Shown here: positions 3,001 to 56,257 of the stretch, one piece after another
How positions within the stretch are numbered: position 1 is the first letter of the stretch
Layout of the letters: each line of letters opens with the position of its first letter
From: an uncultured Gammaproteobacteria bacterium
GTDB taxonomy: Bacteria; Patescibacteriota; Microgenomatia; CAZETR01; Amesbacteraceae
Direction: 5' to 3'
Assembly: GCA_964518565.1 (NCBI GenBank)
Contig: CAZFGX010000001.1
Location: 734,568 to 798,567 of the forward strand
DNA length: 64,000 nucleotides
Notes under the pieces: model-generated
Databases searched by the model: none
Told to the model about the DNA's origin: nothing
What the model saw: the letters and a program-made list of their open reading frames with translations, nothing else
Translations under genes and position numbers: made by a program

Positions 3001-4434
3001 GCCACAAACAATGCGCTGGCCATCTTCAATGAAACTGGCAGTGCTGCCATTCTTACAGCTTCAAACTCTGGCACAACCGTCATGACCCTCACAAATGGTT
3101 CTGGTGCAGATCTTATTATCGGTGCCGATGGTACCAATACTGCCGCCAACATTAGCGGCAATGGTCTACTCGCTTATGGCGCCATCTGTGCCGACGACAC
3201 TCTAGACACAGCCGACGATTGTATCGACGCTTCCCGCACAGCCGGAACAGTGTATGGAATTTCTTCCAGCTTCACCATCGATGACGTTGGCGAAAACTTC
3301 CCCACACTCGACAACAACATTCAAGCCGGTGATGTCGTCAGTACAGATTATCAAAGCATTCCCAATGAACCAGCTGCTGAAAACTACGCTTACGAAACTG
3401 AATTCGTTAAAAAAGCTACAAACGGAGATACTTCAAAAGTCTTAGGCGTAATCTCCGAAAAACCTGGCGTACTTCTCGGTGGCTGGGGTCAGAAAAAAGA
3501 TCCACGCTCAGTCAAAGACGTGGCCATTGCCCTTTCTGGTCGTATTCCAGTTAAAATCTCTCAAAACTCAGCTCCTATTCAAGCCGGAGATTATCTGACC
3601 ACCAGTTCCGAACCTGGAAAAGCCCAAAAAGCCACCAAACCAGGCCATATGATTGGAAAAGCTTTAGATGCCTGGAATCCTAATAGCGGAAAAGACACTG
3701 TCCTATTCTTTGTCCAAAATGGTTGGGCGGATCCAACCAATTTCCTTGCTTTCGATGACAGTGGAAATCTTGTAGTGCCTGGTACAGTGACTGCTTCAGA
3801 ATTTGCTGCCAAAACAACAGATATCAACAATCAAACAATTCAAATTACCAATATCAAATCAGAATTAGATGTCCTAAAAGATCAAGTTGCTTCTATCTCT
3901 GCCGAACTAGCCAATCTCCAAACAAACAACGCCTCTTCTAGTGGTCTACCAATAGATCAAAACTGGGCAATTTCTACAGATTCTGGCCGACTAGTGACCA
4001 CTCTAGCCGTTCAAGTACCTCAGCTCTCAGTTACTGGCAGACTCAATGTCGGTACACTCGTCTTTGACGACATTCTCTCAGACATCACTTCATTAACAGG
4101 CGAAATTTCTCTCAACGGTGGCGTAGTCACGATCGACGATCAGGGTAATATCACCACCACTGGCACACTAGCCGCCAAAGAAATAACCACTGAAAAAGTA
4201 AATATCCTCGGTACGGCGACAGAAAGTGCCTCACTTGGCAAAGCAGTCATCCCCACTGGTACGACAGAATTCAGTATCGACACTACAGCGGTCTCCACTA
4301 GCTCATCAGTCTTTGTTACTCCAGAAATCCCAGTTGCCATCTCCGCAAGTGCCACAGAATCTGGTAAGTTTGTAGTTCGTATCCCCCAAATTCAACCTAC
4401 TGATGTCAAATTCAGCTGGTGGGTCATTAACTAA
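1..4434 (+). CDS. Giant Thr/Ser/Gly-rich repetitive surface protein (adhesin or fibre-like), 5'-truncated by the window edge. It has a C-terminal coiled-coil followed by a globular domain.
   Basis: Frame 1 is open from nt 1 with no stop before 4432-4434, so the ORF-track start at 199 is only the first in-window ATG. Composition is dominated by T/S/G/N. There are four ~73-aa tandem repeats (TGSGATMTTGGELLDLVxGANTVGAG...). A heptad-like segment ITNIKSELDVLKDQVASISAELANLQ lies near the C-terminus. Confidence 0.7.
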   Translation, partial: TSWDVSSTGVASGLTGLTSSGTITFSGLSSAGLVTNTSGGVLGTTTTIGAAYITADSLDFTEFKDSMALDAALTIAQGTNTWTQTFTGTTGPAISLTASGNVSSGNASALYINASNASSSVSPVMISNSSAQPSIWINDDGTDADSTPFVVDASGNVGIGDSTPDNALDIAGTTNGIYGIDVTNSSNGSGAVTTASFTNDASAQVLVGMGGSNAIANVLGSRAFMQSNSTSNGISLVANGSADDIRFFTGGQATTNEKLRISDLPAAGASGDIISSTYTLNAMDGSDTVNAMILSLTNPNHTIGSNVLNGINIAGITGDADATENAFQVGTGWDNVLSYNNTAIINGSGILQSAALSGTYSNALTLSSTSNAFTGTIGQSTALAGSFTTLSSTGATTLGNNSSTVAIDTTSWDVSSAGAISGLTGFTQASGAFSSTLSTTNTATFNSTTANSDSIGIKPQTTTATNSFTGTITSDDLTAARTWTLPDATGTICVSGQSCALTGTVTSSGSSLNTQLAYFTSDSNITGSSTYTFSPSPTTGAGLALTGSGVTSGSLSRFTGSGATMTTGGELLDLVMGANTVGAGMTITSTGVYTGTGAADGLINVVANSLTTGLGSQYSYTGLTSGSGERVTGSGATMTTGGELLDLVLGANTVGAGITVTSSGTYTGTGSADGLINVVANSLTTGDGSKMSFTGLTSGTGLEIIGGTSMTTNGELVDLNMGAATAGNGLNINTSGVYTGTGLAVLTANAMTTGQAMSISTTGLTSGSAQRITGSGATMTTGGELVDLVLGANTVGAGMTITSTGAYTGVGTADGLINLTANSLTTGYASQIFTNGLTTGRSLNINSTSTALTTGSLGYLEWAPGSSTTATSADLFRINIGTNGNLSSGNLFNVTDAGTTLFSVNESQVTSALPHQFTASGDVSIAYDLNFTNQTSSFIKSNSSLTIQSGESFESNNLTLQTYGSGRVVFDVNGTANGGILLSNAPSSQTPKGLFMVSGTATNNALAIFNETGSAAILTASNSGTTVMTLTNGSGADLIIGADGTNTAANISGNGLLAYGAICADDTLDTADDCIDASRTAGTVYGISSSFTIDDVGENFPTLDNNIQAGDVVSTDYQSIPNEPAAENYAYETEFVKKATNGDTSKVLGVISEKPGVLLGGWGQKKDPRSVKDVAIALSGRIPVKISQNSAPIQAGDYLTTSSEPGKAQKATKPGHMIGKALDAWNPNSGKDTVLFFVQNGWADPTNFLAFDDSGNLVVPGTVTASEFAAKTTDINNQTIQITNIKSELDVLKDQVASISAELANLQTNNASSSGLPIDQNWAISTDSGRLVTTLAVQVPQLSVTGRLNVGTLVFDDILSDITSLTGEISLNGGVVTIDDQGNITTTGTLAAKEITTEKVNILGTATESASLGKAVIPTGTTEFSIDTTAVSTSSSVFVTPEIPVAISASATESGKFVVRIPQIQPTDVKFSWWVIN
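1672..2540 (+). repeat. Four tandem coding repeats of ~219/219/204/225 nt inside the giant surface-protein gene
   Basis: Repeat unit F/VTGSGATMTTGGEL(L/V)DLV(M/L)GANTVGAG(M/I)T(I/V)TS(T/S)G.YTGTG.ADGLIN(V/L)(V/T)ANSLTTG recurs at nt 1672, 1891, ~2110 (diverged) and ~2314 in the translated frame. Confidence 0.8.
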
Positions 4435-4435
4435 C

Positions 4436-7400
4436 ATGCGTATCAAAAAACCCAAATTCACCAAGAAAAAATTCTTTAGTTTTATCAGCAGTTTATTTCT
4501 TTTTATCGGAATTGCGGCAGTCTTTATGCGGCTTACAGCACCGGCAATCGAAGCCGCTTGGTTCGATGATACGTATGCCTATCGTGTCAAACTCATTTTT
4601 ACCCACAATGCCACTATTGGTGACCCTCGAGCCGTGACTTACAGGCTCGATACCGCCGAACTCATTTCGGCCAACATGATGCAATCAGATTGTGATGATA
4701 TTCGGTTTACAGATGTAAATGGCAAATCATTACTCTATGACCTTACAGGCACTTGCAACAACGCCACCACTGCATTTGAAATAGTTTTTCCCAACATAGT
4801 AAACGGATCAAATATTGCCTATGCGTATTACGGCAGTCCAAATGCCGTGAACGGTGAAATCGACTCTACCCAATTTACAGCTCTCACCCCATCTGGAGGC
4901 GATCCATCAGACGAAACCGCACCCACCACCAATCAAGAAGTAGGCCCCGGCCCAATTCTGTATTGGAAATTTGATGAAAAAGTCGGCACTACTGCATATG
5001 ACAGCACCTTAAACAGAAACAACGGCACGGTTGATTCTGCTTCTTATTGGAAAACTCCAGATTTATGTGCCAGTGGTCCATGTATTTATTTCACCGGTGG
5101 CAACAATCGTGTTTCCAAAAGTTACAGTTCAGATACTGAACTTGATCCTGGCAGTGGCAGTATGACTATCTCAGCCTGGACAAAACGTTCAGCCACAGCT
5201 ACTGATACAGACTATATCGTTTCCCGCGAATCTACCGGTGGATACAACTTATATATGAACAGTAGCGGCAATCTGTGTTTTGAAATCAAATCCGGCGCCA
5301 ACACAGACACTGCCTGCTCCACCACAACCTATGTAGATTCTACTTGGCACTATATCACTGGAGTAAAAAATGCCACCACATCAATAACTCTCTATATAGA
5401 TGGCAAACAAATGGGTCAAGACGCATCAATATCCGCCACCGGTTCAATCAGCGGTTCGTCCCCTACATTTTCCGTTGGTAGAAATTCCGACGGCGTCACT
5501 ACAAATGAATGGGTAGGTTTTATAGATGAAGTCAAATACTACAATTACGCCAAATCCGCCACTCAAGTACTGAATGAATTTAGCACCAAAACTCAATCAA
5601 AAGGTACCAATGCATCTTTTGGCGATAGTAGCACTACAAATCTTTCCAGCAATGGCCTGATGGGCTATTGGAAAATGGATGAGTACACCTCAAATCTCTG
5701 TTCAGGCGGCGCAAATGATAGTTGTGACTCATCTGGAAACAGTAATGATGGTCTATGGAATGGCAATGTCGCCGCCGTCTCTGCCACCAAATATTTTTAC
5801 GGCACATCCTACGACGGTACTGGAGATTATGTTGGCACTTCAAACAATAATTCAGTCAAAGGTAAATCCCAAGTTTCGGTGTCTATGTGGATCTACCCCA
5901 CAACAGTCAATTCCGTCCAACGAGACATCTATGCCGAACCCATAAATGCCGATGATTCAAATCGTTTTGAGCTAATGCTAGATTCTGACAACGCTATGTA
6001 TTTTGGTGGCCGCAGCACCGACACCAACAGTTTTGAAGATTGGGCAGATGGCACTACTACTATTAGTGCAAATAATTGGTATCACATTGTCGCTATATAC
6101 GACGGTGTAACCGGTAAACACAAACTATATGTCAACAATATTCTCCAAGACTCTTTCTCGACCACCCCAAGAGCCTTTGACAACACAAATCCATTTGCAG
6201 TCCCAAGAATTGGCGCCAACACTCTCGGAACTACTGGATTCATAGGCCGAATCGACGAAGTCAAACTTTACAGCCGAGCCCTAAGTGCCAATGAAGTCAC
6301 CAATTTATACGATGTTGGACCTGGTCCAGTCGGATATTACAAACTCGATGAAGCCGGTGGCACTACTGTGACAGACAATGCCAGCGCAAATACAGGAGTT
6401 CTCACTTCTAGTCCTGTTTGGGTCACCGGCAAATACGGACAAGGTCTAAAATTTGACGGCAGTGCTTCGTATGTCCGTGGCGACTCCCCTTCTACAAACT
6501 TAGCCTTAGTAGAAAATGTCACTGTCTCTGCCTGGGTCTATCGCCGCGTCGCCGGGGCCAATCACACCGTCGTCGAATATGCTTCAAATGGTGAAACCGA
6601 AACCACCAACGAAGCCTACAGTTTATTAATCAACTCGACAAACAATCTGGAGCTAAATTGGGAACATAGCACAGGGACAAACGATAGCACTGTTTCCACC
6701 GCCACGCTAACGACCACCTCCGGCGCCTGGATTCATGTCGCCGCAGTACGAGATATAAACAACAACACCGTCAAATTTTACGAAAATGGCGTTCAGTTAG
6801 GCACTACGGTTTCATATACAAACGATCCATCTGGTTCAGACAGCTCGTCAAATCGTATAGATATCGGTCGAGATGCCAGCAATGGTACAAACTATTTTGA
6901 CGGCACGATAGATGATGTAAGAATTTATAACTACACGCTCACCCCCAAACAATTAGCCATTGAAATGAATGCCGACCATCCCACAGTTGGCACACCCGTC
7001 GGCGCATATATCTCCTATTGGCCATTTGATGAAGGACGGGGTACTACGGCCAATGACAAATCATTAAATGCCGACAATCTCACTCTTTCCACTTCATCCT
7101 GGACCAGCACTGGAAAATTTTTCAATGCCTGGAATGGCCTTGGTACAAACTACATCTCTCGGTCAAATGACAGTGATTACGATGTCGACACCAACAGTTT
7201 TTCAATTAGTTTTTGGTTCAAGTCAGACAACAGCGGCGGCTCAGGTACCCAGTACATAGTAAACCGTGCCTCGTCCACCATCGCCGGATTTGCCGTCTAT
7301 GGAAATTCTTCTGGAAACATTGTCTTTGGCGTGGACGACGACACCAGCTGGGGGCCAGATGCCATCGTCACCTCTTCCAGCAATTTATACAATCAAGCCT

Positions 7401-9070
7401 GGCATCACATTGTCGCCGTAAAAACCGATACTTCCAGATTAGACCTGTATGTCGACGGCAAGCTAAATGCCTCAACAACTACTGGTGTTCCCACTGGCTC
7501 TCTTTCAAACGACCTTACCTTATATATAGGTGATCGCGACGGTACAGACAATGGCGATGAAGCCTTGGTGGATCTTGATGAAGTCAAAATTTATTCTGGC
7601 GCCTTGTCTCTTCAAGATGTCCAAGTCGAATACAATCACGCTTCCCAAACCCAACTCGGATCGCTCTCCACCAGTTCAGATGGTGTCACCATAGCAAACG
7701 ATACTGCACGTGGATACTGTGTCCCTGGCGATACCTCTACATGCAACACCCCAGTCTTAGAATTACAAATGGATGAAAACTCAGGCACATCAGCATTTGA
7801 CACCTCCGGAAATGGCAACACCGGCACACTCACGTTAGGCCCCACCTGGACAGCAGGCAAATTAGGCCCAGCCGTAAGTTTCGACGGCTCAGACGACTAC
7901 ATCACCGTTACAGACGCCAACAGTTTAGATCTCACCACCAGCGGTTCAGCCATGGCCTGGGTACGTCGAACCAGCACAGGTACTTACGACACGATCCTAG
8001 GCAAAGGTGCAGCAAACGCTGCAGCATCCCACAATTACGCTATGGAATTTACCGATACAAACACAATGGATGTCATTGTCGGTGGTGGTGGTGTGAGTGG
8101 CCAAACTTGCAACGACGGTTCTACGACATTTACAGACACCACCAACTGGCATCACTATGCTATGACGTGGGACAATTCAAATATACGTTTCTATTACGAC
8201 GGTAAACAAGCATTCAGTTGTACTCAAACTGTAGCAGGCACGGCAAATACAGCAGCATTATTAATAGGAATGTTTGGCGGAAGTGTGGACAATCTCGCCG
8301 GACAAATAGACTCAGTCAAAGTCTACAATTACACTCGCAGCGCATCTCAAATATCCTGGGATTACAACCAAGGCAAATCAGTCGCATATTGGAAATTTGA
8401 TGAATGTCAGGGATCTACTCTCTATGATTCATCTGGTGGCGGCTACAATGGTACTTGGAATGGCGCTTCCAGCGGCACTCAAACATCAGTCGGCTCATGC
8501 AACACTTCAAGTACTGCCTGGGGCAATGGCGCTACTGGCAAATTCAGTTCATCACTAAACTTTGACGGTACAAACGACTATGTCGAAGTCGCAAATGCCG
8601 CAGCATTAAATTATGTTTCTAGACCATTTAGTATTTCTGTATGGCTCAATAAAGGTAGTTCATTTGGCTCAACCTTTGCCCGCGTAGTAGACAAAATTAG
8701 TGCCGGCACAGGAAATGGCTATGGAATAGATATGCACGACACAACCATTCGCATCTTGGGTAGCACCAGCGTTGGCTTTACCTACTCTACCTCATCCAGC
8801 ACCTGGTACCATCTCGTAGCCACATATGACGGATCAAGTACTGGTACTTTATATATAAATGGAAACTTAGTTAGTTCTGGCTCATATGCAGCAGCCAATG
8901 CCTACACCGGCACACTTCGTATCGGTGCCGCCAGCGACGCCACCTCACCATTTACCGGTAAAATTGATGAAGTACAAATATTCCCCTATGCACTCACCGC
9001 CAGACAAGTAAAAACCATTTACAACCAAAACTCTGCCATTCGCTTTGGTCCACAAACTGGTACACCCTAG
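4436..9070 (+). CDS. Giant secreted or membrane-anchored protein with an N-terminal TM/signal anchor and at least six concanavalin-A-like/LamG (LamG_3-type) lectin domains
   Basis: N-terminal hydrophobic helix FFSFISSLFLFIGIAAVFM. Six recurring jelly-roll C-terminal strands: IDEVKYYNYAKSATQV, IDEVKLYSRALSANEV, IDDVRIYNYTLTPKQL, LDEVKIYSGALSLQDV, IDSVKVYNYTRSASQI, IDEVQIFPYALTARQV. Start placed at the ATG at 4436 immediately after the upstream stop; the track start at 4403 would overlap by 32 nt. Confidence 0.75.
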   Translation: MRIKKPKFTKKKFFSFISSLFLFIGIAAVFMRLTAPAIEAAWFDDTYAYRVKLIFTHNATIGDPRAVTYRLDTAELISANMMQSDCDDIRFTDVNGKSLLYDLTGTCNNATTAFEIVFPNIVNGSNIAYAYYGSPNAVNGEIDSTQFTALTPSGGDPSDETAPTTNQEVGPGPILYWKFDEKVGTTAYDSTLNRNNGTVDSASYWKTPDLCASGPCIYFTGGNNRVSKSYSSDTELDPGSGSMTISAWTKRSATATDTDYIVSRESTGGYNLYMNSSGNLCFEIKSGANTDTACSTTTYVDSTWHYITGVKNATTSITLYIDGKQMGQDASISATGSISGSSPTFSVGRNSDGVTTNEWVGFIDEVKYYNYAKSATQVLNEFSTKTQSKGTNASFGDSSTTNLSSNGLMGYWKMDEYTSNLCSGGANDSCDSSGNSNDGLWNGNVAAVSATKYFYGTSYDGTGDYVGTSNNNSVKGKSQVSVSMWIYPTTVNSVQRDIYAEPINADDSNRFELMLDSDNAMYFGGRSTDTNSFEDWADGTTTISANNWYHIVAIYDGVTGKHKLYVNNILQDSFSTTPRAFDNTNPFAVPRIGANTLGTTGFIGRIDEVKLYSRALSANEVTNLYDVGPGPVGYYKLDEAGGTTVTDNASANTGVLTSSPVWVTGKYGQGLKFDGSASYVRGDSPSTNLALVENVTVSAWVYRRVAGANHTVVEYASNGETETTNEAYSLLINSTNNLELNWEHSTGTNDSTVSTATLTTTSGAWIHVAAVRDINNNTVKFYENGVQLGTTVSYTNDPSGSDSSSNRIDIGRDASNGTNYFDGTIDDVRIYNYTLTPKQLAIEMNADHPTVGTPVGAYISYWPFDEGRGTTANDKSLNADNLTLSTSSWTSTGKFFNAWNGLGTNYISRSNDSDYDVDTNSFSISFWFKSDNSGGSGTQYIVNRASSTIAGFAVYGNSSGNIVFGVDDDTSWGPDAIVTSSSNLYNQAWHHIVAVKTDTSRLDLYVDGKLNASTTTGVPTGSLSNDLTLYIGDRDGTDNGDEALVDLDEVKIYSGALSLQDVQVEYNHASQTQLGSLSTSSDGVTIANDTARGYCVPGDTSTCNTPVLELQMDENSGTSAFDTSGNGNTGTLTLGPTWTAGKLGPAVSFDGSDDYITVTDANSLDLTTSGSAMAWVRRTSTGTYDTILGKGAANAAASHNYAMEFTDTNTMDVIVGGGGVSGQTCNDGSTTFTDTTNWHHYAMTWDNSNIRFYYDGKQAFSCTQTVAGTANTAALLIGMFGGSVDNLAGQIDSVKVYNYTRSASQISWDYNQGKSVAYWKFDECQGSTLYDSSGGGYNGTWNGASSGTQTSVGSCNTSSTAWGNGATGKFSSSLNFDGTNDYVEVANAAALNYVSRPFSISVWLNKGSSFGSTFARVVDKISAGTGNGYGIDMHDTTIRILGSTSVGFTYSTSSSTWYHLVATYDGSSTGTLYINGNLVSSGSYAAANAYTGTLRIGAASDATSPFTGKIDEVQIFPYALTARQVKTIYNQNSAIRFGPQTGTP

Positions 9071-9122
9071 CTAGCTTATACCCCTTGACTCAAATAGATC
9101 AAAGTAATAATCTGTACATCAG

Positions 9123-9320
9123 ATGACATCAGCAAATCTTTCCGAACTTCCAGACCTTCTCACTGTCAAAGAAGTCGCTGCTGTCTTACGAGTTTCAGTT
9201 CTTACAGTCAAACGCTGGGGCAAACGCGGTAAGCTCGTCCCTATCCGTATCAACTCCCGCGGCGATCGTCGCTACAAAAAAGAAGCCGTCCAATGGCTTC
9301 TCGGAATAACTCCTAAATAG
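9123..9320 (+). CDS. Small helix-turn-helix DNA-binding protein of the excisionase/MerR-like (HTH_17) family
   Basis: LTVKEVAAVLRVSVLTVKRWGKRGKLVPIRI matches the excisionase-family HTH signature. 65 aa. Confidence 0.6.
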   Translation: MTSANLSELPDLLTVKEVAAVLRVSVLTVKRWGKRGKLVPIRINSRGDRRYKKEAVQWLLGITPK

Positions 9321-10023
9321 CAAACTCCTGAATCTTATCTCCTACCCGCACCATATAGTTCCCCTTGGTCAAATCCAATATTTTTCCAATATATCCATTA
9401 TCTCCCACTCCTGTCATTGGTAACTGTTGCCACTCACTCGCACCAACTGATTTATATTCCACTAGATCCACCTTCTGTCGACTTACCACCGTTACCAAAA
9501 CAGAACGAGAATCTATAGGCAAAACAGAAATACTAAATATTTCAGACTTTGCCCCCACCTGGGTATTCTGAGACCGAGAAGCCAATTTCATACTTACCCA
9601 CAATCCACCCAATAGAAAAACAGCCACAAAGCTCAAAAATAATACCCGCGGCGCACTAGCAGGTTTTGATCCCGCTGCTCCATCACTAATCTTTTGTACA
9701 AACAGCCCATCTCCTCCATACCAACGTTTTCCACAGCGCACACAATATCGTACTTCAATAGTCACTGGCACATCTTCGCCCACATATCGCTGCAACATCA
9801 TTCCATCTTGAGGACACACACCAGTACCCCCCTTTAACCATAAGGAATCGATTTTTACTCGCCTCATGGCAACGAGCGCATGGGGATCGATCTCAGAAAA
9901 TGTATGCGCATCAGCCCAAAATCCCCCACAATGAAAACATCTGTACAAAAATTTTCCATCGATTTGTATATCGGACAATCGCGAACCACAATCAGGGCAT
10001 TTCATCTTGTTTAGTATACTCAA
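9313..10023 (-). CDS. Membrane protein with two N-terminal zf-TFIIB-like zinc ribbons, one TM helix and a C-terminal extracytoplasmic domain (paralog A)
   Basis: MKCPDCGSRL...YRCFHCGGFWAD and CPQDG...CVRCGKRWYGGD fit the CPxCG...CxxCGG(F/I)W(L/A)D pattern. Hydrophobic segment VLFLSFVAVFLLGGLWV. Confidence 0.55.
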   Translation of the reverse strand: MSILNKMKCPDCGSRLSDIQIDGKFLYRCFHCGGFWADAHTFSEIDPHALVAMRRVKIDSLWLKGGTGVCPQDGMMLQRYVGEDVPVTIEVRYCVRCGKRWYGGDGLFVQKISDGAAGSKPASAPRVLFLSFVAVFLLGGLWVSMKLASRSQNTQVGAKSEIFSISVLPIDSRSVLVTVVSRQKVDLVEYKSVGASEWQQLPMTGVGDNGYIGKILDLTKGNYMVRVGDKIQEFAI

Positions 10024-10744
10024 TAACTAGTGGGTATTCCCGCTCAAATATCTTATAAATATAGTTTCCTGGGGTAAGTTTTCTCAAACTCGCTCGATAC
10101 CGCCGACCATCAAATTGAACCGGAACTGTAGAATAGTTCAGTTGGCCTGCAGGACGATACAAAATATTCGACACTGGCATACTGGAAGCAAAAACAATAT
10201 CTACATCTCCCTGACCAATAAACACAATAGCAATCCCCGACGCCTCACTACTCGCAGAAATTCCCACCCGCTGTGGCAGCTGTACCAATACGATTGATGT
10301 TGCCACCGCCCCAATGACAAAAATCAAACTTAAGGCCGGCAACGCTACCTTTTTCAATCCATCCTTATTCCATTGCAAGGTATACTCACGCTTAGCTTTC
10401 ATTGCTTCATAAAAAGTGAACAATGAATTGTGCGGAAACCACCAATTTCTACACGCATCACATACACCTGCCACAAATCCCTCTGGCACTAGCTCACGAT
10501 GTGGCGAGTTTAAAATCCAGCCATCGGTAGGACACGCATTAGTCCCTCCAGCAGGACTTTCGCCAGCATGTTCTTTTACTTCCAAACTCTTTCCTTCTGC
10601 CAACGCATTGACCACCCAATTTGGCACCCAAAATCCTCCACATCGAGCACAACGAAAAGACTCATCAATTCCTATGACAGAAACAGTTTGCAGCTCCGCC
10701 GCACACCCCGGACACAACATATAAAAATAGTATAGCTTAACCAA
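9992..10744 (-). CDS. Membrane protein with two zf-TFIIB-like zinc ribbons, a TM helix and a C-terminal domain (paralog B of 9313..10023)
   Basis: CPGCAAEL...FRCARCGGFWVPNW and CPTDG...CDACRNWWFP. TM helix VALPALSLIFVIGAVATSIVLV. Same architecture and similar length as the downstream paralog, overlapping it by 32 nt. Confidence 0.55.
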   Translation of the reverse strand: MVKLYYFYMLCPGCAAELQTVSVIGIDESFRCARCGGFWVPNWVVNALAEGKSLEVKEHAGESPAGGTNACPTDGWILNSPHRELVPEGFVAGVCDACRNWWFPHNSLFTFYEAMKAKREYTLQWNKDGLKKVALPALSLIFVIGAVATSIVLVQLPQRVGISASSEASGIAIVFIGQGDVDIVFASSMPVSNILYRPAGQLNYSTVPVQFDGRRYRASLRKLTPGNYIYKIFEREYPLVIEYTKQDEMP

Positions 10745-28196: not shown

Positions 28197-28267
28197 GGGC
28201 CATTAGCATAGTAGTAGTGCGCCGCATTCGCATTGCGGATACGGGGGTGCGATCCCCCCATGGTCCA
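28197..28267 (+). tRNA. tRNA-Ala (anticodon CGC)
   Basis: Hand-folded cloverleaf. Acceptor GGGCCAT/ATGGTCC with G3:U70. D-stem GCAT/GTGC. Anticodon stem CCGCA/TGCGG with loop TTCGCAT. T-arm GGGGG-TGCGATC-CCCCC. Discriminator A. CCA not encoded. Confidence 0.75.
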
Positions 28268-28605: not shown

Positions 28606-28676
28606 GGGCCCGTAGTTCACCGGTAGAATAACTCAATGGCATTGAGTAGAAAGGGGTTCAATTCCCCTCGGGTCCA
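28606..28676 (+). tRNA. tRNA-Ala (anticodon GGC)
   Basis: Acceptor GGGCCCG/CGGGTCC with G3:U70. D-arm GTTC-ACCGGTA-GAAT. Anticodon stem ACTCA/TGAGT with loop ATGGCAT. Canonical T-arm AGGGG-TTCAATT-CCCCT. Confidence 0.8.
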
Positions 28677-51273: not shown

Positions 51274-52563
51274 TCATATGACCCGCTGGAGCTCAATAGT
51301 ATGTTTATCTGCTCGAGTCACACCCCAAGAACACATCACAATCGGCAGCTCTAGCCGATCTGAAATATCTTGCAAATATGCTCTTTGATTACCCAACTCG
51401 ACCGATTCATAAACCGGCACAGCGTCAAACAATTGCCTCGTTACTTGTTCTCGAAAAATCAGATCTCTTTGTTCACCTTCAGGTATGTTTGTCCAAGTTT
51501 GTCCATGGACACGATACCCAGAAACCATTTGCCACACCGGCAAATGACAGAGTTGATCGACATGGCTCACCACCAATCCATCAACATGACCCAATGCCGC
51601 CAATCCGTATCGCAGCATCAGCATATCCAAATAACCCACTCGAAAATGCTCTTGCCAGGGATTTGTTGGATTATGTATATCCGCCAATCGTTTTGTAAGA
51701 TCTTTGTCCTCAGACGGAAACGGTCCTGCCCCATGACGAGTAGCATACGCTCGCATCAATCCTAAAAATTGCTTTTGACCATCAAACTGCATTCGTCCTA
51801 ACAAATTCTGAGCATTATCGTATGTAATCGTACTCCAGGTGGTGTAAGGATGAAATCCTCTCCACTCATCCAAAAGCACCCCCTGAGCCCCCTCAAACAC
51901 CACTACACCATCAAGTCTACCCAACTGTAACAAATATGCTTCGTCTACCAAATTCAGCTGTTTTCCTACATGCAAGTACTCGTCCACCACATTTTCCAAA
52001 AAAACGTTTGCCTGAAATTGTGGTAATAAATACTGCTGTTTCAGTTCTCGAATTGCCAATAATTTTTGTCTCAGTATTGACCTGTTCTGCAAATCAGCTG
52101 CATACATAGTCAATTCCGGAAACTCCAAACTATCAGCGACTGTTTCACCTACACCCAATCCACAACTACCATGACGGTTTTGGCCTCGAGCTAATTCCTT
52201 TGCCATGTTAGTCATTTGTTGAAATGGTGTAATGACTCTCGCCCGCCGATCCACATATAAGCGTCCAAATGCATCAGTCACACCCACCTGCTGCAAACCT
52301 CGCTCTTCTTTAACCAAAGCCAAAGGATGCAAAATCATGTATTCAGACAAATAGGTATTAACACCGGGAATAAAAGTTCCGGCTCCAAATTGACTAAAAC
52401 GATGATGTCTCCCGTCCGGTGTTACAACATTATGTGCCGCTTGTGCTCCGCCGTTGTATCGCACTACCGTATGCACCGGCACAGTAGCAGCCAAATAGTC
52501 GACGACGCTGCCCTTACCAGCATCCCCAAACCCCAAATCTGCAATCACAATCGCCTGTTTCAT
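51274..52563 (-). CDS. Adenylosuccinate synthetase-family protein with a divergent active-site motif
   Basis: P-loop GFGDAGKGSVVD (GDEGKGK in canonical PurA). VVRYNGGAQAAHNV replaces the canonical VVRYQGGHNAGHT. ~430 aa. Start at MKQAIV. Confidence 0.65.
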   Translation of the reverse strand: MKQAIVIADLGFGDAGKGSVVDYLAATVPVHTVVRYNGGAQAAHNVVTPDGRHHRFSQFGAGTFIPGVNTYLSEYMILHPLALVKEERGLQQVGVTDAFGRLYVDRRARVITPFQQMTNMAKELARGQNRHGSCGLGVGETVADSLEFPELTMYAADLQNRSILRQKLLAIRELKQQYLLPQFQANVFLENVVDEYLHVGKQLNLVDEAYLLQLGRLDGVVVFEGAQGVLLDEWRGFHPYTTWSTITYDNAQNLLGRMQFDGQKQFLGLMRAYATRHGAGPFPSEDKDLTKRLADIHNPTNPWQEHFRVGYLDMLMLRYGLAALGHVDGLVVSHVDQLCHLPVWQMVSGYRVHGQTWTNIPEGEQRDLIFREQVTRQLFDAVPVYESVELGNQRAYLQDISDRLELPIVMCSWGVTRADKHTIELQRVI

Positions 52564-52614
52564 TTTAAACCTCAAAAAAAGGGCAGAAGGTTCCCCCTCT
52601 GCCCTAAATCACAC

Positions 52615-53655
52615 TCACAAACGCTTCGTTTTGGATTTACCACCGAAACCTGGTAGCAAATTACCGATTCCGGCGATTCCCGTCCCCGAAGGTTTGTACA
52701 ATTCCACAGCCTTACCTGCCGCGGCCACAGCACTCGCAGAAGCATGCCCAGACAACAATTGTGACTGAACATCAGCCCACCGTAATCCACTATCCAAAGC
52801 CATCACCGATAAAATCACCTCACACACCGCTTCATTATCAGTCAGCTGCAACACATGCTGACCCAACAAATTTTTCCACGTTCGCAATACTCGATCCTCA
52901 CCACTATGGTCCGCACCTGTCGGCATGATGTAAAACACTTCATATCGCTTTTTCAATTCAGACACAATGTGTTCGACCGAAATTGAGGCTTGCAACCGAT
53001 CGCCAATCAACCGCTCAACCTGAATTGGGTCTACTTGTCCATATGGCATCTCATCGCCAATCATAAACAAATAACCCTTTTGCCGGCGCTTGTTCCAACA
53101 GTCCAAATCCGTATGCCGTGCCATAAAGTACATCGCCAACTCATACGATTCTGTCATCTGACCACCACCGCCTCCTTCCAAAATTAGGTTCCGAAGCTGC
53201 TCATCCATCGCATTATCAGCCTCGAATTGTCCAATTTGCAGCGGCACCCGATCACAAGTCGCATCTCCAATTCCCCCAAACAAGATTTGTGGATGCTCCA
53301 CATACCCTCGAGTCATCAAAAGTCCCATCAGCTCCGGCAACTTTTTTTGCAACGCCATCGGAATCGAACCCATCGATCCTGTCACATCCAAAAGCACACC
53401 AACCGCCGTTGAACTGGGATGCCCAGCGGAATCTCGACTTTCACGTACAGTTACCCCATAAGGATTAAGAGTGTCGTGAACAGTATATCTTCCCGACGTA
53501 CGAGCCTTGGCGTCCCAATCAAAATCCGGCGTACCAGTAGCCTTTCGATGTCTGGCTAAGCGTTGATACTCATCAAGATCAATATTAAAATATCCCATGA
53601 TTTTTCCTCCATCTGCTAATGCGGCATCAAAAACGTATGAAACGCTCGTTTCCAA
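52615..53655 (-). CDS. Cytoplasmic von Willebrand factor A (vWA) domain protein with an intact MIDAS motif
   Basis: VLLDVTGSMGS (DxSxS-type MIDAS). No signal peptide or TM. The 5' end overlaps the upstream J-domain/kinase-like gene by 40 nt. Confidence 0.65.
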   Translation of the reverse strand: METSVSYVFDAALADGGKIMGYFNIDLDEYQRLARHRKATGTPDFDWDAKARTSGRYTVHDTLNPYGVTVRESRDSAGHPSSTAVGVLLDVTGSMGSIPMALQKKLPELMGLLMTRGYVEHPQILFGGIGDATCDRVPLQIGQFEADNAMDEQLRNLILEGGGGGQMTESYELAMYFMARHTDLDCWNKRRQKGYLFMIGDEMPYGQVDPIQVERLIGDRLQASISVEHIVSELKKRYEVFYIMPTGADHSGEDRVLRTWKNLLGQHVLQLTDNEAVCEVILSVMALDSGLRWADVQSQLLSGHASASAVAAAGKAVELYKPSGTGIAGIGNLLPGFGGKSKTKRL

Positions 53656-54638
53656 AGCGAATCTATCAAACGATTAAAATCTCTTATTAACACCACCGCA
53701 TCTTGCGGTCTTATTCGCACATTATCCAAAAGACATGCGCGAAAATAAGCATGAAACTTTTTATCTATCGTATTGGGCAAAGCTCCAGTTGAAACATCAC
53801 CTCCCAATAAATAGACCATTACCCGCGCAGCCATCGCAATATCCACCCCACAACCAGCTTCAGCTTTTGCCAAAACCTCCTTTGGATACCAGGCTTGATA
53901 TGGGCTTGATATAGCCGAAACCTTTTCTCCAACCCGAATACCATAGCACCAATCAATAAGTATCAATCCATGGCCATCAGGATGAACCAATACATGCTCA
54001 GGCAAAATTGCTCCATGGATAACATCCATTTGATGCCCTACTGCCATTGCCATCAGCAATCGTCTCCAAATCCACGCCATGTCTTTCGGATCAATTCCGT
54101 TTGGATACACATCATGAATTTGTTTCGCTGTATAAAACCCGGACATATACGACAACACATTTACTCGTCGGACAGTCCAGGTTGTTTGTTCACGAAAATC
54201 AAAGCTATTCAACAATCTCGGCACAAACATCAAAAACTTTTTATGTTCTGTTTGTGCTAAGCGTCTCAAAATCTCCGCCTCATGTTCAACCAAATCATTA
54301 TCCTGCGGATCTAAAGCAACCTTGCACACAACCTGCTCTTTATTTTGTGTTTGTGCTAGATAAATACTCGCCACATCACCTTCTGCCAGAACAGTATTTA
54401 GGGTATAGACTTCATTACCCGATGAAATTTGTCCCAGTATCTGCGGCAACCCAAAAGCTTCCCACAATTGCCCCAGTCGTTGAAAAACAGTCTCTGCATC
54501 GGTCTCATCTGCCACATCCGGATGCACAATTTTTGCCAAACCCAGATATGTTTTATGTGCGACTTTTGCATCTGAACCAAATAATTGTTCCGGTACCACC
54601 GCTGTCAATATCCGACTCTTTGCTTCGGAATAATTCAT
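53616..54638 (-). CDS. J-domain (DnaJ-like, HPD motif) fused to a protein-kinase-like domain with a degenerate catalytic loop (predicted pseudokinase)
   Basis: J-domain YLGLAKIVHPDVADETDAETVFQRLGQLWEAF. Kinase subdomains LAEGDVASIYLA (G-loop), VVCKVAL (VAIK), EHEAEILRRL (alphaC Glu), VIHGAILPEHVLV (HRDLKPEN-like with D->A, K->L, N->H), LIDWCYG (DFG-like). Confidence 0.5.
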   Translation of the reverse strand: MNYSEAKSRILTAVVPEQLFGSDAKVAHKTYLGLAKIVHPDVADETDAETVFQRLGQLWEAFGLPQILGQISSGNEVYTLNTVLAEGDVASIYLAQTQNKEQVVCKVALDPQDNDLVEHEAEILRRLAQTEHKKFLMFVPRLLNSFDFREQTTWTVRRVNVLSYMSGFYTAKQIHDVYPNGIDPKDMAWIWRRLLMAMAVGHQMDVIHGAILPEHVLVHPDGHGLILIDWCYGIRVGEKVSAISSPYQAWYPKEVLAKAEAGCGVDIAMAARVMVYLLGGDVSTGALPNTIDKKFHAYFRACLLDNVRIRPQDAVVLIRDFNRLIDSLWKRAFHTFLMPH

Positions 54639-54718
54639 TTCTCACCTTCCTTGTTAATGAGCGAGAGTTAGTGTCTAATGCACACTATACCTGAAGTTTA
54701 GTTATTGTCAAGTAAACA

Positions 54719-55468
54719 CTAATTCTCTGTTTTTATCGGTGTAGCCACCACAATCAACCGCTTCCAACTCGTCCCAGGCGGATAACATGTTTGCAATACC
54801 AACTGCTCCTTTTGATCTTGTGTTCGCAAATAGCTCAAATCTTTCGCGGCAATAATATGTCGCTCACTCATCTGATATCGATATAGTTTATCTTTATACA
54901 CAATCTGAATCTCATCCCCCAATTCCAGCCGATGTAGCAAATAAAAAATCGCATTATATCTTGCAAAATCCAAGCTAGATCCAACTGAATGAGCAAACAA
55001 ATAAGTCGTCCCCACCTGTCCAGGCACAGCCAATCCTTTTGCCGCTGCCACTCCTTGTTTCAAAGCTGCAGAGTATGCCCGAGAATCAAACGGATCTACC
55101 TCATCCACCACTCTAGACTTTGCCAAAATTTTTGGGATATAAATCGAATAATCTGAATCTGGTACACTCCAGGTTGGCTTACCCTTATCCTCTTTCGTAT
55201 ACACATGAACAATTTGATTAGGTTGGCTATTAGAAATCCGCTCCACCGCCCTACCTGCTGACGTCTGTCCAAACCCATATTTCATTTCCTCTCGCAACAC
55301 TGGCCACACCAACCACAAAACAAACAATACCCCGCCTACCACTACACCCAAACCAAATCGATCCAGAAATCGCACGACTCTTCGCAACCGGCTCAATTGC
55401 CGACCTACCGCCACTTCAGTCGTAACTTGTGGTGGAGAAGAACTCTCAAAGATTAGCCCTTCTTTCAT
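54719..55468 (-). CDS. Sortase (cysteine transpeptidase)
   Basis: N-terminal TM anchor. His motif TTYLFAHSVG. Active-site Cys in LVLQTCYPPG (TLxTC-like). Conserved Arg in RLIVVATP. Confidence 0.7.
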   Translation of the reverse strand: MKEGLIFESSSPPQVTTEVAVGRQLSRLRRVVRFLDRFGLGVVVGGVLFVLWLVWPVLREEMKYGFGQTSAGRAVERISNSQPNQIVHVYTKEDKGKPTWSVPDSDYSIYIPKILAKSRVVDEVDPFDSRAYSAALKQGVAAAKGLAVPGQVGTTYLFAHSVGSSLDFARYNAIFYLLHRLELGDEIQIVYKDKLYRYQMSERHIIAAKDLSYLRTQDQKEQLVLQTCYPPGTSWKRLIVVATPIKTEN

Positions 55469-55474
55469 AAATAT

Positions 55475-56257
55475 TTACCAAATCCTTTTTGCCAATGTCT
55501 TCACTCCAAATCCTATACCAAATACCCCTGCAGCACCCAATAATATCCAACCTTCGCCTCCAGTGTCTGGAGTAGTCTGTACCTTACCACAAAAACAACT
55601 CTTATCAGATGGACAACTTGGATTTCGACAAACTCCTTGAAAACAACCAAAACCCGCACCACAAGCCGAATCATTAGTACACATCTGGCCACAAGCACGA
55701 ATAATAGTCGGGGTTGGGGTTTTCGTTGTCACCAGTGTTGGTGTTCCAGTCGGCGGCTGACTCAAAATAGTCGTCGGAATTACAGCTACAGTTGGTGTTA
55801 CGCGCAATACTGGACGAGTTGGCAATGGGGTAATGGGTGGTGTCCCAGTTCCATCCCAACAATCACCCGAATACCACACCATGTACCCCAACAATTTACA
55901 TTCTGGATTCCATGTTCCATCTTGTCTCCGACAAGTTTTGTCATATAAAGACAATTGGATTGTCTTGCCACAAGCCGCAGTGCCAAAAGACTCAGAATTA
56001 CTCCAATATCCTTCCGATTCCAAACACTGATCCCATCTCCCAGAACAGGTATATTTCACCACCCCACCTGACTGACTCTGACATGTTCCTGTAGTTGGAT
56101 TACATCCCACATCGCAGCTGTATCGAGTCGCCGCAGTACCAGATCCACACAAATTTACATACGTCCCAGATCCATACGACAAAGCTGCGTGCGCCGTATC
56201 CGCCAACCCCGCCAAACCCAAAAGCATAAAAAGGCAAATGAAAACAAGGTATCTCAT
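55475..56257 (-). CDS. Secreted Cys-rich protein with a signal peptide, a PT-rich linker, a 'CRNP' cysteine module and a C-terminal sorting signal (candidate substrate of the adjacent sortase)
   Basis: Signal peptide MRYLVFICLFMLLGLAGLADTAHA. PT linker. CGQMCTNDSACGAGFGCFQGVCRNPSCP. C-terminus TTPDTGGEGWILLGAAGVFGIGFGVKTLAKRIW (motif + hydrophobic helix + basic tail). Confidence 0.6.
   Translation of the reverse strand: MRYLVFICLFMLLGLAGLADTAHAALSYGSGTYVNLCGSGTAATRYSCDVGCNPTTGTCQSQSGGVVKYTCSGRWDQCLESEGYWSNSESFGTAACGKTIQLSLYDKTCRRQDGTWNPECKLLGYMVWYSGDCWDGTGTPPITPLPTRPVLRVTPTVAVIPTTILSQPPTGTPTLVTTKTPTPTIIRACGQMCTNDSACGAGFGCFQGVCRNPSCPSDKSCFCGKVQTTPDTGGEGWILLGAAGVFGIGFGVKTLAKRIW

Follow-up and report, generated by a model that had tools for sequence, protein, structure and literature searches.

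Comparison of related loci indicates that the two genes flagged on the minus strand of the window (the whole stretch of 64,000 nucleotides that was analysed) are part of a conserved three-gene cassette, consisting of a J-domain-pseudokinase fusion (hereafter J), a cytoplasmic vWA protein (V), and a divergent PurA-superfamily protein (P), with V and P as its most tightly linked pair. The order J-V-P was found in 72/85 related loci from Actinomycetota and Chloroflexota, and V and P occur together in 85 of the 89 loci holding V. The original prediction had described J and V as a two-gene module flanked by a PurA-like gene on one side and a sortase/substrate pair on the other. The pairing of J with V does recur, but the unit really comprises three genes, and the PurA-like gene is a member of it rather than a bystander. 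As had been proposed, the module appears to be undescribed, since a literature search, which did not extend to subscription-only literature, yielded no account of a J-V-P cassette.

Gene organization and regulatory signals

Both flagged ORFs are present in the window, with J spanning 53616..54638 (-) and encoding 340 aa, and V spanning 52615..53598 (-) and encoding 327 aa; P follows on the same strand (51274..52563 (-), 429 aa) and is predicted to be GTP-dependent. The V start at ATG 53598 is supported by the 327-aa database gene call, the family-wide 'MG' N-terminus, and a Shine-Dalgarno GGAGG at 53606..53610 (-), 7 nt before the start codon. This leaves a 17-nt spacer between the J stop codon and V. 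The 40-nt overlap of J and V, on which a translational coupling of the two genes had been based, is therefore an artefact of ORF calling, and the proposed coupling was wrong. The ATG of P at 52563 is preceded by GAGG.

Upstream of J, in the 80 nt that separate it from the sortase gene, the promoter-like site TTGACA-16-TATAGT (54684..54711 (-)) agrees with 11/12 consensus positions and likely represents the start of the cassette transcript; it is a consensus match only, and shuffled sequence contains at least as many sites of this kind as the region does. A strong intrinsic-terminator-like hairpin was identified at 52573..52605 (-), in the gap that separates V from P, composed of an 11-bp stem with 7 G-C pairs and a subsequent U tract (folding energy -21.6 kcal/mol, z -3.4), so that J and V may be transcribed largely apart from P in the window. 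An Rfam scan of the window returned two tRNAs only and no riboswitch near the cassette. The cassette is surrounded by housekeeping genes, and its host belongs to the Patescibacteria, with a reduced genome of roughly 1 Mb.

Distribution of the cassette

Across four bacterial phyla as well as phages, V directly precedes P with few exceptions, and in 37/77 loci the end of V and the beginning of P share 4 nt. Some 200 cluster C mycobacteriophages (Bxz1, Tonenili), among them all C1 mycobacteriophages, carry the complete triad; the annotations of Bxz1-type phages read only 'kinase', 'hypothetical', and 'PurA-like'. Furthermore, a J-like protein is encoded upstream of V-P on plasmids of Rhodococcus and of the alphaproteobacterial genera Agrobacterium and Acetobacter. 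Overall, the cassette is distributed patchily and has apparently been transferred into a CPR genome.

V-P was also found without J, namely in Vibrio phages, Rhizobium phages, and 11 actinobacterial loci, whereas J without V was not seen among the loci examined. The position of J in the Vibrio and Rhizobium phages is occupied by an unrelated protein, for which hhalign (probability below 1%) gave no indication of a cryptic J homologue. Thus, V-P constitutes the core of the cassette and J an accessory component, and with J absent from about 13% of loci, any link to DnaK would not be essential to V-P.

J combines a J-domain with a non-catalytic kinase fold

The J-domain of J covers residues about 3-62 (54453..54632 (-)), with the HPD motif at residues 39-41 (54516-54524 (-)). 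The match of Pfam DnaJ to the copy in the window is weak (E 0.005, residues 28-61; 17.4 bits versus a gathering score of 27.8), but the CbpA J-domain from the PDB matches it with an E-value of 0.002, and 20/46 family members are matched by Pfam DnaJ at E < 0.01, the best at 5e-6. HPD is invariant in an alignment of 46 J sequences and is present in every locus-derived J protein (n=68) that covers this region (9 of these ORFs are gapped there), as well as in phage and plasmid homologues. In an AF2 model, H39-P40-D41 is flanked by predicted helices at residues 24-38 and 48-61. By its HPD motif, J fits the J-domain proteins (Hsp40 co-chaperone class).

The remainder of the protein (residues about 69-328, 53655..54434 (-)) adopts a bilobal protein-kinase-like fold in the AF2 model of 53616-54638 (pLDDT 93), the structure check that had been suggested for this gene. 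Foldseek searches with this model retrieved AAK1, Aurora, PknB, and STRADalpha at E-values of about 1e-12 and aligned the J-PKAc chimera 8fe5 over both domains. The predicted fusion of an HPD-bearing J-domain to a kinase fold was thereby corroborated.

The catalytic-loop equivalent of J, HGAILPEH (residues 208-215, 53994-54017 (-)), aligns with HRDLKVEN. Alanine (A210) occupies the position of the catalytic Asp in 67/68 copies and histidine (H215) that of the Asn in 66/68, no Lys is found at the Lys position, and xGDxxxxY stands where the glycine-rich loop would be. Retained in the chromosomal copies are the VAIK Lys (K106, 67/68), the alphaC Glu (E120, 68/68), and the DFG Asp (D229, 65/68), and the subdomain XI Arg (R310) is found in 63/68 copies, so that the residue pattern originally read from the single copy in the window agrees with the counts for the family. 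Given that relatives read HGAxLPxH instead of HRD/N, the pseudokinase pattern is a family-wide trait: J is a J-domain on a non-catalytic kinase fold and no decayed pseudogene. J does not fit an active eukaryotic-like Ser/Thr protein kinase, as the fold is present but the catalytic Asp, Lys, and Asn of HRDxKxxN are absent.

The kinase motifs decay progressively across groups while HPD stays invariant. The catalytic loop reads HGAxxPxH in Chloroflexota and Actinomycetota, HGAITPDN in a phage copy, in which the Asn is back at its position, and HTAxxADN in Rhodococcus, and it is fully degenerate in alphaproteobacteria. Gly stands in place of the DFG Asp in the plasmid copies from Rhodococcus and alphaproteobacteria, and the alphaproteobacterial copies have in addition lost the VAIK Lys and the alphaC Glu, yet HPD and the partnership with V-P persist.

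V is a highly conserved vWA protein

V shows a vWA Rossmann-like fold. Its sequence starts with an invariant Met-Gly, contains the MIDAS sequence DVTGS together with an EGGGGG loop and a GDE motif, and closes with a disordered tail whose last residues are ..KRL. The MIDAS residues D71-V-T73-G-S75 (53374-53388 (-)), in which Thr replaces the first Ser, and G181-D182-E183 show little or no variation; V therefore carries a complete MIDAS as its putative metal site, which upholds the description of V as a cytoplasmic vWA protein with an intact MIDAS. The Met-Gly start is invariant in phage copies too and is disordered in the structural model.

No match to V was obtained from Pfam, NCBIfam, PADLOC, or PDB sequences, the curated VWA models all missing it, and the sole matching model was PHROG 2971, which is labelled 'unknown function'. 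V alone accounts for 2,259 cluster representatives. Its mean column identity across phyla is 66%; such very high conservation is atypical of fast-evolving conflict systems. The RL-COOH tail is found in 61/73 loci with J compared to 4/11 actinobacterial loci without J (Fisher p = 0.002, uncorrected for phylogeny). Four apparent fusions of V were discarded: P0364 and P0495 result from frameshifted read-through of V into P in high-GC contigs, and P0432 and P0476 are V proteins that contain an intein.

P is neither PurA nor PurZ

P is recognized by the signatures RHGSCGxGxGE, TRHGAGP, and NPWQxxFRxGxLD. It matches Pfam Adenylsucc_synt (PF00709) with an E-value of 3.5e-65, and the family profile matches Escherichia coli PurA at the level of the fold (E 2e-56). 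A profile alignment with the latter (1ade) revealed that the P-loop, D13, K16, H41, Q224, D333, and S414 are kept. The set required for GTP binding and phosphotransfer (G12-D13-x-G-K16-G, H41, Q224, and D333, the guanine-specificity Asp) is invariant in P alignments. The aspartate site (T300, T301, R303, R305), however, is replaced throughout the clade, with GATTGRRRR changed to xxWQGxFR, and so is the IMP 5'-phosphate site (N38 to Q, T129 to C, R143 not conserved). The lost PurA sites are filled by new invariant residues.

P remains far below the NCBIfam cut-offs for PurA (179 bits versus 402 for NF002223; 148 versus 396 for TIGR00184) and PurZ (42 bits versus 300 for NF038379), although PHROG 1211, the model matching P, is labelled '2-aminooxy adenylosuccinate synthetase' and phage records call it PurA-like. 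PurZ proteins have Ser instead of Asp13 (PMC12884076), whereas Asp13 is invariant in P; this and the low score led us to reject P as a PurZ, and the replaced aspartate and IMP-phosphate residues together with the missed equivalog cut-offs led us to reject it as an ordinary PurA. Judged by its residues, P represents a distinct clade of the adenylosuccinate-synthetase superfamily.

Genomic neighbourhood

Neighbour families in the loci were counted by profile search for each family; all-against-all clustering of naive ORFs from high-GC loci merged overlapping and antisense ORFs. An NrtR-like gene (Nudix plus winged-helix type) is located upstream in 74 related loci and is divergently transcribed from the cassette in Agrobacterium; an NrtR-type regulator is absent next to the cassette in the window. 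A Nudix gene adjoins P or falls within one ORF with it; the seeming P-Nudix single ORFs of Kitasatospora-type loci stem from naive ORF calls only. Phage cassettes have a NADAR gene and NMNAT/PRTase genes nearby, and plasmid cassettes adjoin AbiEii toxin, IS6, and VgrG genes. Not all NrtR-family regulators sense ADP-ribose, so that the link of the cassette to ADP-ribose is only suggestive. PADLOC models matched neither V nor P and gave only generic weak kinase matches for J.

Comparison with known systems

MoxR AAA+ proteins and vWA proteins form chaperone-adaptor pairs that act on an enzyme client, as in CbbQ-CbbO/Rubisco, NorQ-NorD/NO reductase, and RavA-ViaA (Kaur et al. 2020, PMC7159879). 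The cassette differs in that it lacks a MoxR gene, its predicted chaperone link being a J-domain (Hsp70 recruitment) on a pseudokinase, in that the neighbouring enzyme is a PurA-family protein, and in that V matches no Pfam VWA model. A MoxR-class AAA+ gene beside V was not found in the window, in annotated and gene-called loci, or in the conserved neighbour families of 80 clustered loci. With the defining gene and models absent, membership of the cassette in this class was rejected.

A likeness to the TerY-P triad (TerY vWA, Ser/Thr kinase, and PP2C) lies in the vWA gene adjoining a kinase-fold gene within a three-gene unit. However, the kinase fold of the cassette is devoid of catalytic residues, its third gene is PurA-like, V matches no TerY/VWA model, and no PP2C gene was found in the cassette in the window or its relatives. 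Membership in the TerY-P group was thus rejected, as the original prediction had anticipated from the missing phosphatase and the lost catalytic residues. P shares with PurA and PurZ the superfamily and the residues for GTP binding and phosphotransfer, but differs from them in its replaced aspartate and IMP-phosphate contacts and in its vWA partner gene, and it keeps Asp13 unlike PurZ. J has the plan of an N-terminal HPD J-domain followed by a folded module in common with phage J-proteins that hijack DnaK and with the oncogenic DNAJB1-PKA fusion. Compared to these, it is a natural and ancient bacterial and phage fusion to a dead kinase fold that is genomically tied to V-P.

Proposed function and alternative explanations

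The cassette probably makes or handles a modified nucleotide. In the mechanism that we favor, V and P would form a stoichiometric complex, in which P would activate a 6-oxopurine-type nucleotide with GTP and transfer it to some amine that is not free aspartate. V, by way of its metal site and invariant flexible N-terminus, would be an indispensable subunit that either presents the substrate or has a regulatory part. The dead kinase scaffold of J would dock on V, possibly on its C-terminal ..TRL tail, and the J-domain would bring DnaK to the V-P complex for assembly, activation, or turnover. The role would lie in nucleotide- or ADP-ribose-linked stress or phage-host conflict and not in housekeeping AMP synthesis, as suggested by the NrtR-type Nudix regulators, Nudix hydrolases, NADAR and NAD-salvage neighbours, and the occurrence of the cassette in lytic phages. 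The originally proposed handing of a vWA-bound client to DnaK is plausible in view of the invariant HPD; the client of J, if any, is most likely the encoded PurA-like enzyme P rather than an unfamiliar protein. For the mechanism as a whole, comprising the V-P complex, the non-aspartate nucleotide chemistry, and the recruitment of DnaK by J, we see about an even chance. Counting against it are the V/P hairpin in the window, the absence of J from about 13% of loci, the very high conservation of V, and the lack of PADLOC matches to V and P.

Two alternatives would detach P from its partners. The borne-out HPD J-domain and MIDAS vWA, the hairpin separating V from P in the window, and a promoter-like site of its own for J would suit a two-gene module of J and V alone that passes a vWA-bound client to DnaK, with the PurA-like gene as an unrelated purine-biosynthesis neighbour. 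We regard this as very improbable, because P follows V in nearly all loci of four bacterial phyla and phages, often with translational coupling, V-P is known without J but J never without V among the loci examined, and P scores below all PurA equivalog cut-offs and has lost the aspartate-binding arginines. Scarcely credible is a P that acts as a plain purine-pathway enzyme, be it PurA for AMP or PurZ for 2-aminoadenine DNA, with V and J being incidental; the PF00709 match, the PHROG 1211 label, and the PurA-like phage annotations fit it, but the aspartate and IMP-phosphate residues are replaced throughout the clade, the NCBIfam cut-offs are missed widely, Asp13 is invariant, and the strict linkage to V would be left unexplained.

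Two further alternatives concern the activity of J and the setting of the cassette. Kinase-fold proteins without HRD, such as SelO and SidJ, can have other activities, and with this precedent, J could be an unconventional kinase, AMPylase, or glutamylase-type enzyme that covalently modifies V or P within a phospho- or nucleotidyl-signalling triad analogous to TerY-P. The VAIK Lys, alphaC Glu, and DFG-like Asp kept in 65-68/68 chromosomal copies, the conserved His in place of Asn, and the Asn regained in the phage copy speak for an active J. It nonetheless appears quite improbable in light of the Ala at the catalytic Asp, the altered glycine-rich loop, the stepwise loss of the DFG Asp, Lys, and Glu on plasmids where HPD and V-P persist, the cassette's lack of a PP2C or other eraser gene, and the failure of V to match TerY/VWA Pfam models. 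Unlikely, in our estimation, is a conflict module, either a phage counter-defence (for example, one that restores adenine or NAD-related nucleotides once ADP-ribose-generating or deaminating immune systems have acted) or a bacterial defence triggered by NrtR-sensed ADP-ribose. Its presence in all C1 mycobacteriophages, the NADAR and NAD-salvage genes in phages and NrtR-type repressors in bacteria, the AbiEii, IS6, and VgrG neighbours on plasmids, and the patchy distribution with apparent transfer into a CPR genome would agree with such a role, but neither V nor P is matched by PADLOC models, V is much more conserved than typical immune proteins, and the cassette of the window lies among housekeeping genes.

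Implications

A more far-reaching reading holds that P is not a small-molecule purine enzyme but a GTP-dependent ligase, with the free alpha-amine of the invariant, disordered N-terminal Gly of V, after Met removal, as the nucleophile. We consider this a long shot. If it were true, a purine nucleotide would be joined covalently to a protein via N6, which would be a post-translational modification not described so far. J would then bring in DnaK for the loading or recycling of modified V, and the product would serve phages and bacteria in a conflict centred on nucleotides or ADP-ribose. In a weaker version, V would present a non-aspartate amine, yielding a new N6-substituted adenine nucleotide.

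With V, the cassette brings to light a large, deeply conserved family that is common to phages and bacteria and has no function on record. J would provide a natural example of a pseudokinase serving as a J-domain adaptor for Hsp70. P would add to PurA and PurZ a third clade of the adenylosuccinate-synthetase superfamily. Its acceptor site is remodelled and its vWA partner would be obligatory, which suggests novel nucleotide chemistry. Metabolic reconstructions should not take 'purA' calls of this clade, including that of the copy in the window, as AMP biosynthesis.

A conserved cassette of three genes

The original prediction combined a J-domain-pseudokinase gene (J, 53616-54638, minus strand, 340 aa) and a vWA/MIDAS protein gene (V, 52615-53598, minus strand, 327 aa) into a module that hands a vWA-bound client to DnaK, with a PurA-like gene (P, 51274-52563, minus strand, 429 aa) as mere flank. 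While the J-V pair is borne out, this interpretation is only partly right and too narrow, since the conserved order J-V-P makes P part of the unit. In the window, all three genes lie on the same strand, flanked by a sortase gene and rho. The same J-V-P order was found on a Chloroflexota contig, and neighbourhoods in Pseudofrankia and Streptomyces read NrtR-J-V-P(-Nudix). Profile searches over 80 GTDB loci together with the loci found earlier yielded 72 J-V-P, 13 V-P and 3 J-V arrangements (the latter on short contigs) as well as 1 V alone; NrtR-V-P genuinely lacking J was found in 11 actinobacterial loci. Furthermore, a 4-nt overlap joins the V stop to the P start in 37 of the 77 loci, compared to a median J-V spacer of 38 nt. 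Based on this census, the J-less actinobacterial loci and these distances, V-P forms the core of the cassette, and J is an accessory that is often present.

The 40-nt overlap previously claimed for J and V did not hold: it results from longest-ORF calling, which places the V start at TTG 53655. The true start is ATG 53598, 17 nt past the J stop, as supported by the database gene call (P0121, 327 aa), the Met-Gly N-terminus that is invariant across the family, and a GGAGG 7 nt upstream. By sequence match, a near-consensus promoter-like site (TTGACA-16-TATAGT) is located just upstream of J, and a second one upstream of rho. Within the 51 nt that separate the V stop from the P start lies a strong terminator-like hairpin (52573-52605, minus strand; 11 bp, U tract, -21.6 kcal/mol, z -3.4), which suggests that P expression is attenuated or under separate control in the window genome and is evidence against a tight three-gene operon there.

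The RadA encoded in the window shares about 70% identity with Candidatus Amesbacteria and Patescibacteria proteins, which places the host among the CPR bacteria; the contig that holds the window measures 1.0 Mb. The sortase gene (54719-55468, minus strand; Pfam E 3e-20) adjoins a gene (55475-56257, minus strand) for a Cys-rich, Pro/Thr-rich secreted protein whose C-terminus consists of TPDTGG, then a hydrophobic helix and KRIW, and which is a likely sortase substrate with a non-LPXTG signal. Two adjoining, very large plus-strand ORFs, 199-4434 (1,411 aa, without Pfam match) and 4403-9070 (1,555 aa, six Laminin_G_3/concanavalin-like repeats), probably encode surface proteins of the giant kind typical of CPR bacteria. 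Rfam matches across the 64 kb are limited to two tRNA genes (28197-28267 and 28606-28676, plus strand).

Family-wide features of J and V

The window copy of J matches the Pfam models Pkinase (E 3.5e-6) and DnaJ (E 0.005) below their gathering scores, while among 46 relatives Pkinase is matched by 30 and DnaJ by 20. A search of PDB sequences returned the kinases AAK1, StkP and CK2 as well as the CbpA J-domain. In the AF2 model (pLDDT 93), HPD lies between two long helices that precede a bilobal kinase fold; with this model, Foldseek found many kinases at E ~1e-12, along with the pseudokinase STRADalpha and the DNAJB1-PKA chimera. Among 68 chromosomal homologues, HPD is kept wherever the region is covered, and K106, E120, D229, D266 and R310 (numbering of the window copy) are retained. 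The catalytic loop reads H-G-A-(V/I)-L-P-x-H, with Ala replacing the catalytic Asp in 67 of 68 copies. Thus, the homologues do not keep a canonical HRD, and the altered loop that had been noticed is a family trait rather than decay of the window copy. More distant members have lost further kinase motifs while keeping HPD: Rhodococcus J has HTAVTADN and Gly for the DFG Asp, and Agrobacterium and Acetobacter copies share the latter change and have lost the Lys and Glu too. The pattern speaks for a kinase fold that serves as a scaffold and a J-domain that is the conserved active element.

For V, no match was found among Pfam, NCBIfam and PADLOC models or PDB sequences. Clustered at 50% identity, its family has 2,259 representatives, of which almost all align from residue 1, and mean column identity across phyla is 66%. 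The predicted MIDAS is confirmed by the family alignment, which shows little or no variation in D71-x-T-G-S75 and G-D182-E183, and likewise in an EGGGGG loop. Copies from Vibrio, Rhizobium and Mycobacterium phages also keep the disordered Met-Gly at the N-terminus, which is invariant. Most copies close with a disordered tail ending in (T/A/E)RL; this tail occurs in 61 of the 73 J-containing loci against 4 of the 11 J-less actinobacterial ones (p = 0.002, loci counted irrespective of kinship).

P represents a separate lineage of the PurA superfamily

A profile of 30 P sequences can be aligned over the full length with E. coli PurA (E 2.6e-56). In E. coli numbering, P keeps the P-loop G12-D13-x-G-K16-G, H41, Q224, D333 and S414. 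However, N38 is replaced by Q, T128-T129 by S-C inside an invariant RHGSCG, V273 by H, and GATTGRRRR by x-W-Q-G-x-F-R, and R143 is not conserved. According to established structure-function work on PurA, these changes remove the residues that bind aspartate (R303, R305, T300 and T301) and the IMP 5'-phosphate (N38, T129 and R143). Scores against the NCBIfam PurA and PurZ models were far under both cut-offs. Asp13 is invariant in P, whereas PurZ enzymes have Ser at this position (PMC12884076). P is therefore neither an ordinary PurA nor a PurZ, and judged by its sequences, the clade is a separate lineage within the superfamily. The pattern of retained and replaced residues predicts a GTP-dependent, catalytically competent enzyme with a different acceptor and/or nucleophile. 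By subtraction of its counts, about 365 of the 767 sequences in a 2026 PurZ survey fall outside the PurA and PurZ clades (PMC12884076), and this unclassified set probably includes the P clade.

Cassettes on phages and plasmids

Using tblastn, V was detected in 220 phage records, 201 of which are cluster C mycobacteriophages (including Bxz1 gp248 and Tonenili gp105); the remainder include Rhizobium and Vibrio phages. Tonenili carries the row 'kinase', hypothetical, 'PurA-like', in which the 'kinase' is homologous to J (29% identity, E 3e-50) and contains HPD and HGAITPDN, and the PurA-like protein shares 39% identity with P. According to a genome announcement, the phams conserved in all C1 phages include the kinase and PurA-like genes (PMC9476963). 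In PHROGs, J, V and P correspond to phrog_3043 ('kinase'), phrog_2971 (unknown) and phrog_1211, respectively. In Vibrio phage TDDLMA and Rhizobium phage TM21B, the slot usually occupied by J, immediately upstream of V-P, holds a shared Met-rich protein (L091:4123-4842 and L092:3666-4457 in the two phage records; 39% identity), which by profile comparison is unrelated to J. J-like-V-P was also found on plasmids of Agrobacterium and Acetobacter and on megaplasmids of Rhodococcus.

Many cluster C mycobacteriophage copies of V, and one metagenomic relative, are interrupted by an intein of about 255 aa (phage record L089 and related records; proteins P0476 and P0432). Its boundaries are KGY|CNTPDAP...ASSN|C-IIGDE, just ahead of the invariant MIDAS GDE, and some phage records annotate an HNH endonuclease there.

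Neighbours and proposed function

An NrtR-type Nudix/winged-helix gene lies upstream of the cassette in 74 loci; in Agrobacterium this gene is divergently oriented, and in Rhodococcus it lies downstream. Several Streptomyces loci have a Nudix hydrolase gene directly after P, and in Kitasatospora and related loci (L036, L038 and L040, ~8000-10050), naive calls give a PurA-like ORF of ~590-670 aa that includes Nudix-homologous sequence and may represent a P-Nudix fusion. The Vibrio phage carries a nearby NADAR gene, and the Rhizobium phage NMN adenylyltransferase/Nudix and phosphoribosyltransferase genes. These recurrent neighbours point to nucleotide or ADP-ribose metabolism, without defining the reaction.

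The best-supported reading is that V and P would form an enzyme complex that makes a modified purine nucleotide or handles one, and that J would connect this complex to DnaK through its intact J-domain and dead kinase scaffold. We infer the complex, the DnaK recruitment and a non-aspartate amine each from adjacency and co-conservation; that the invariant N-terminal glycine of V is itself the nucleophile for P appears rather improbable. A classical immune system would be another explanation for such a cassette, but two observations argue against it: V is very highly conserved, and neither V nor P matches a PADLOC model. The proposed V-P complex linked to DnaK resembles MoxR-vWA adaptor systems, which likewise act on an enzyme client, with Hsp70 replacing MoxR; since the cassette has no MoxR gene, this is resemblance rather than membership.

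No description of the cassette was found in the full-text literature searched, including Kaur 2020 (PMC7159879), Iyer 2021 (PMC7824862), Iyer 2022 (PMC9503650), the 2026 PurZ survey (PMC12884076), a metagenomic dZ preprint and a mycobacteriophage annotation study. The J-pseudokinase/vWA/PurA-like cassette is undescribed and widely distributed. The P gene of the window would be auto-annotated as purA, although it lacks the aspartate-binding residues, and metabolic reconstructions would wrongly credit this reduced (~1 Mb) Patescibacteria genome with AMP synthesis from IMP.
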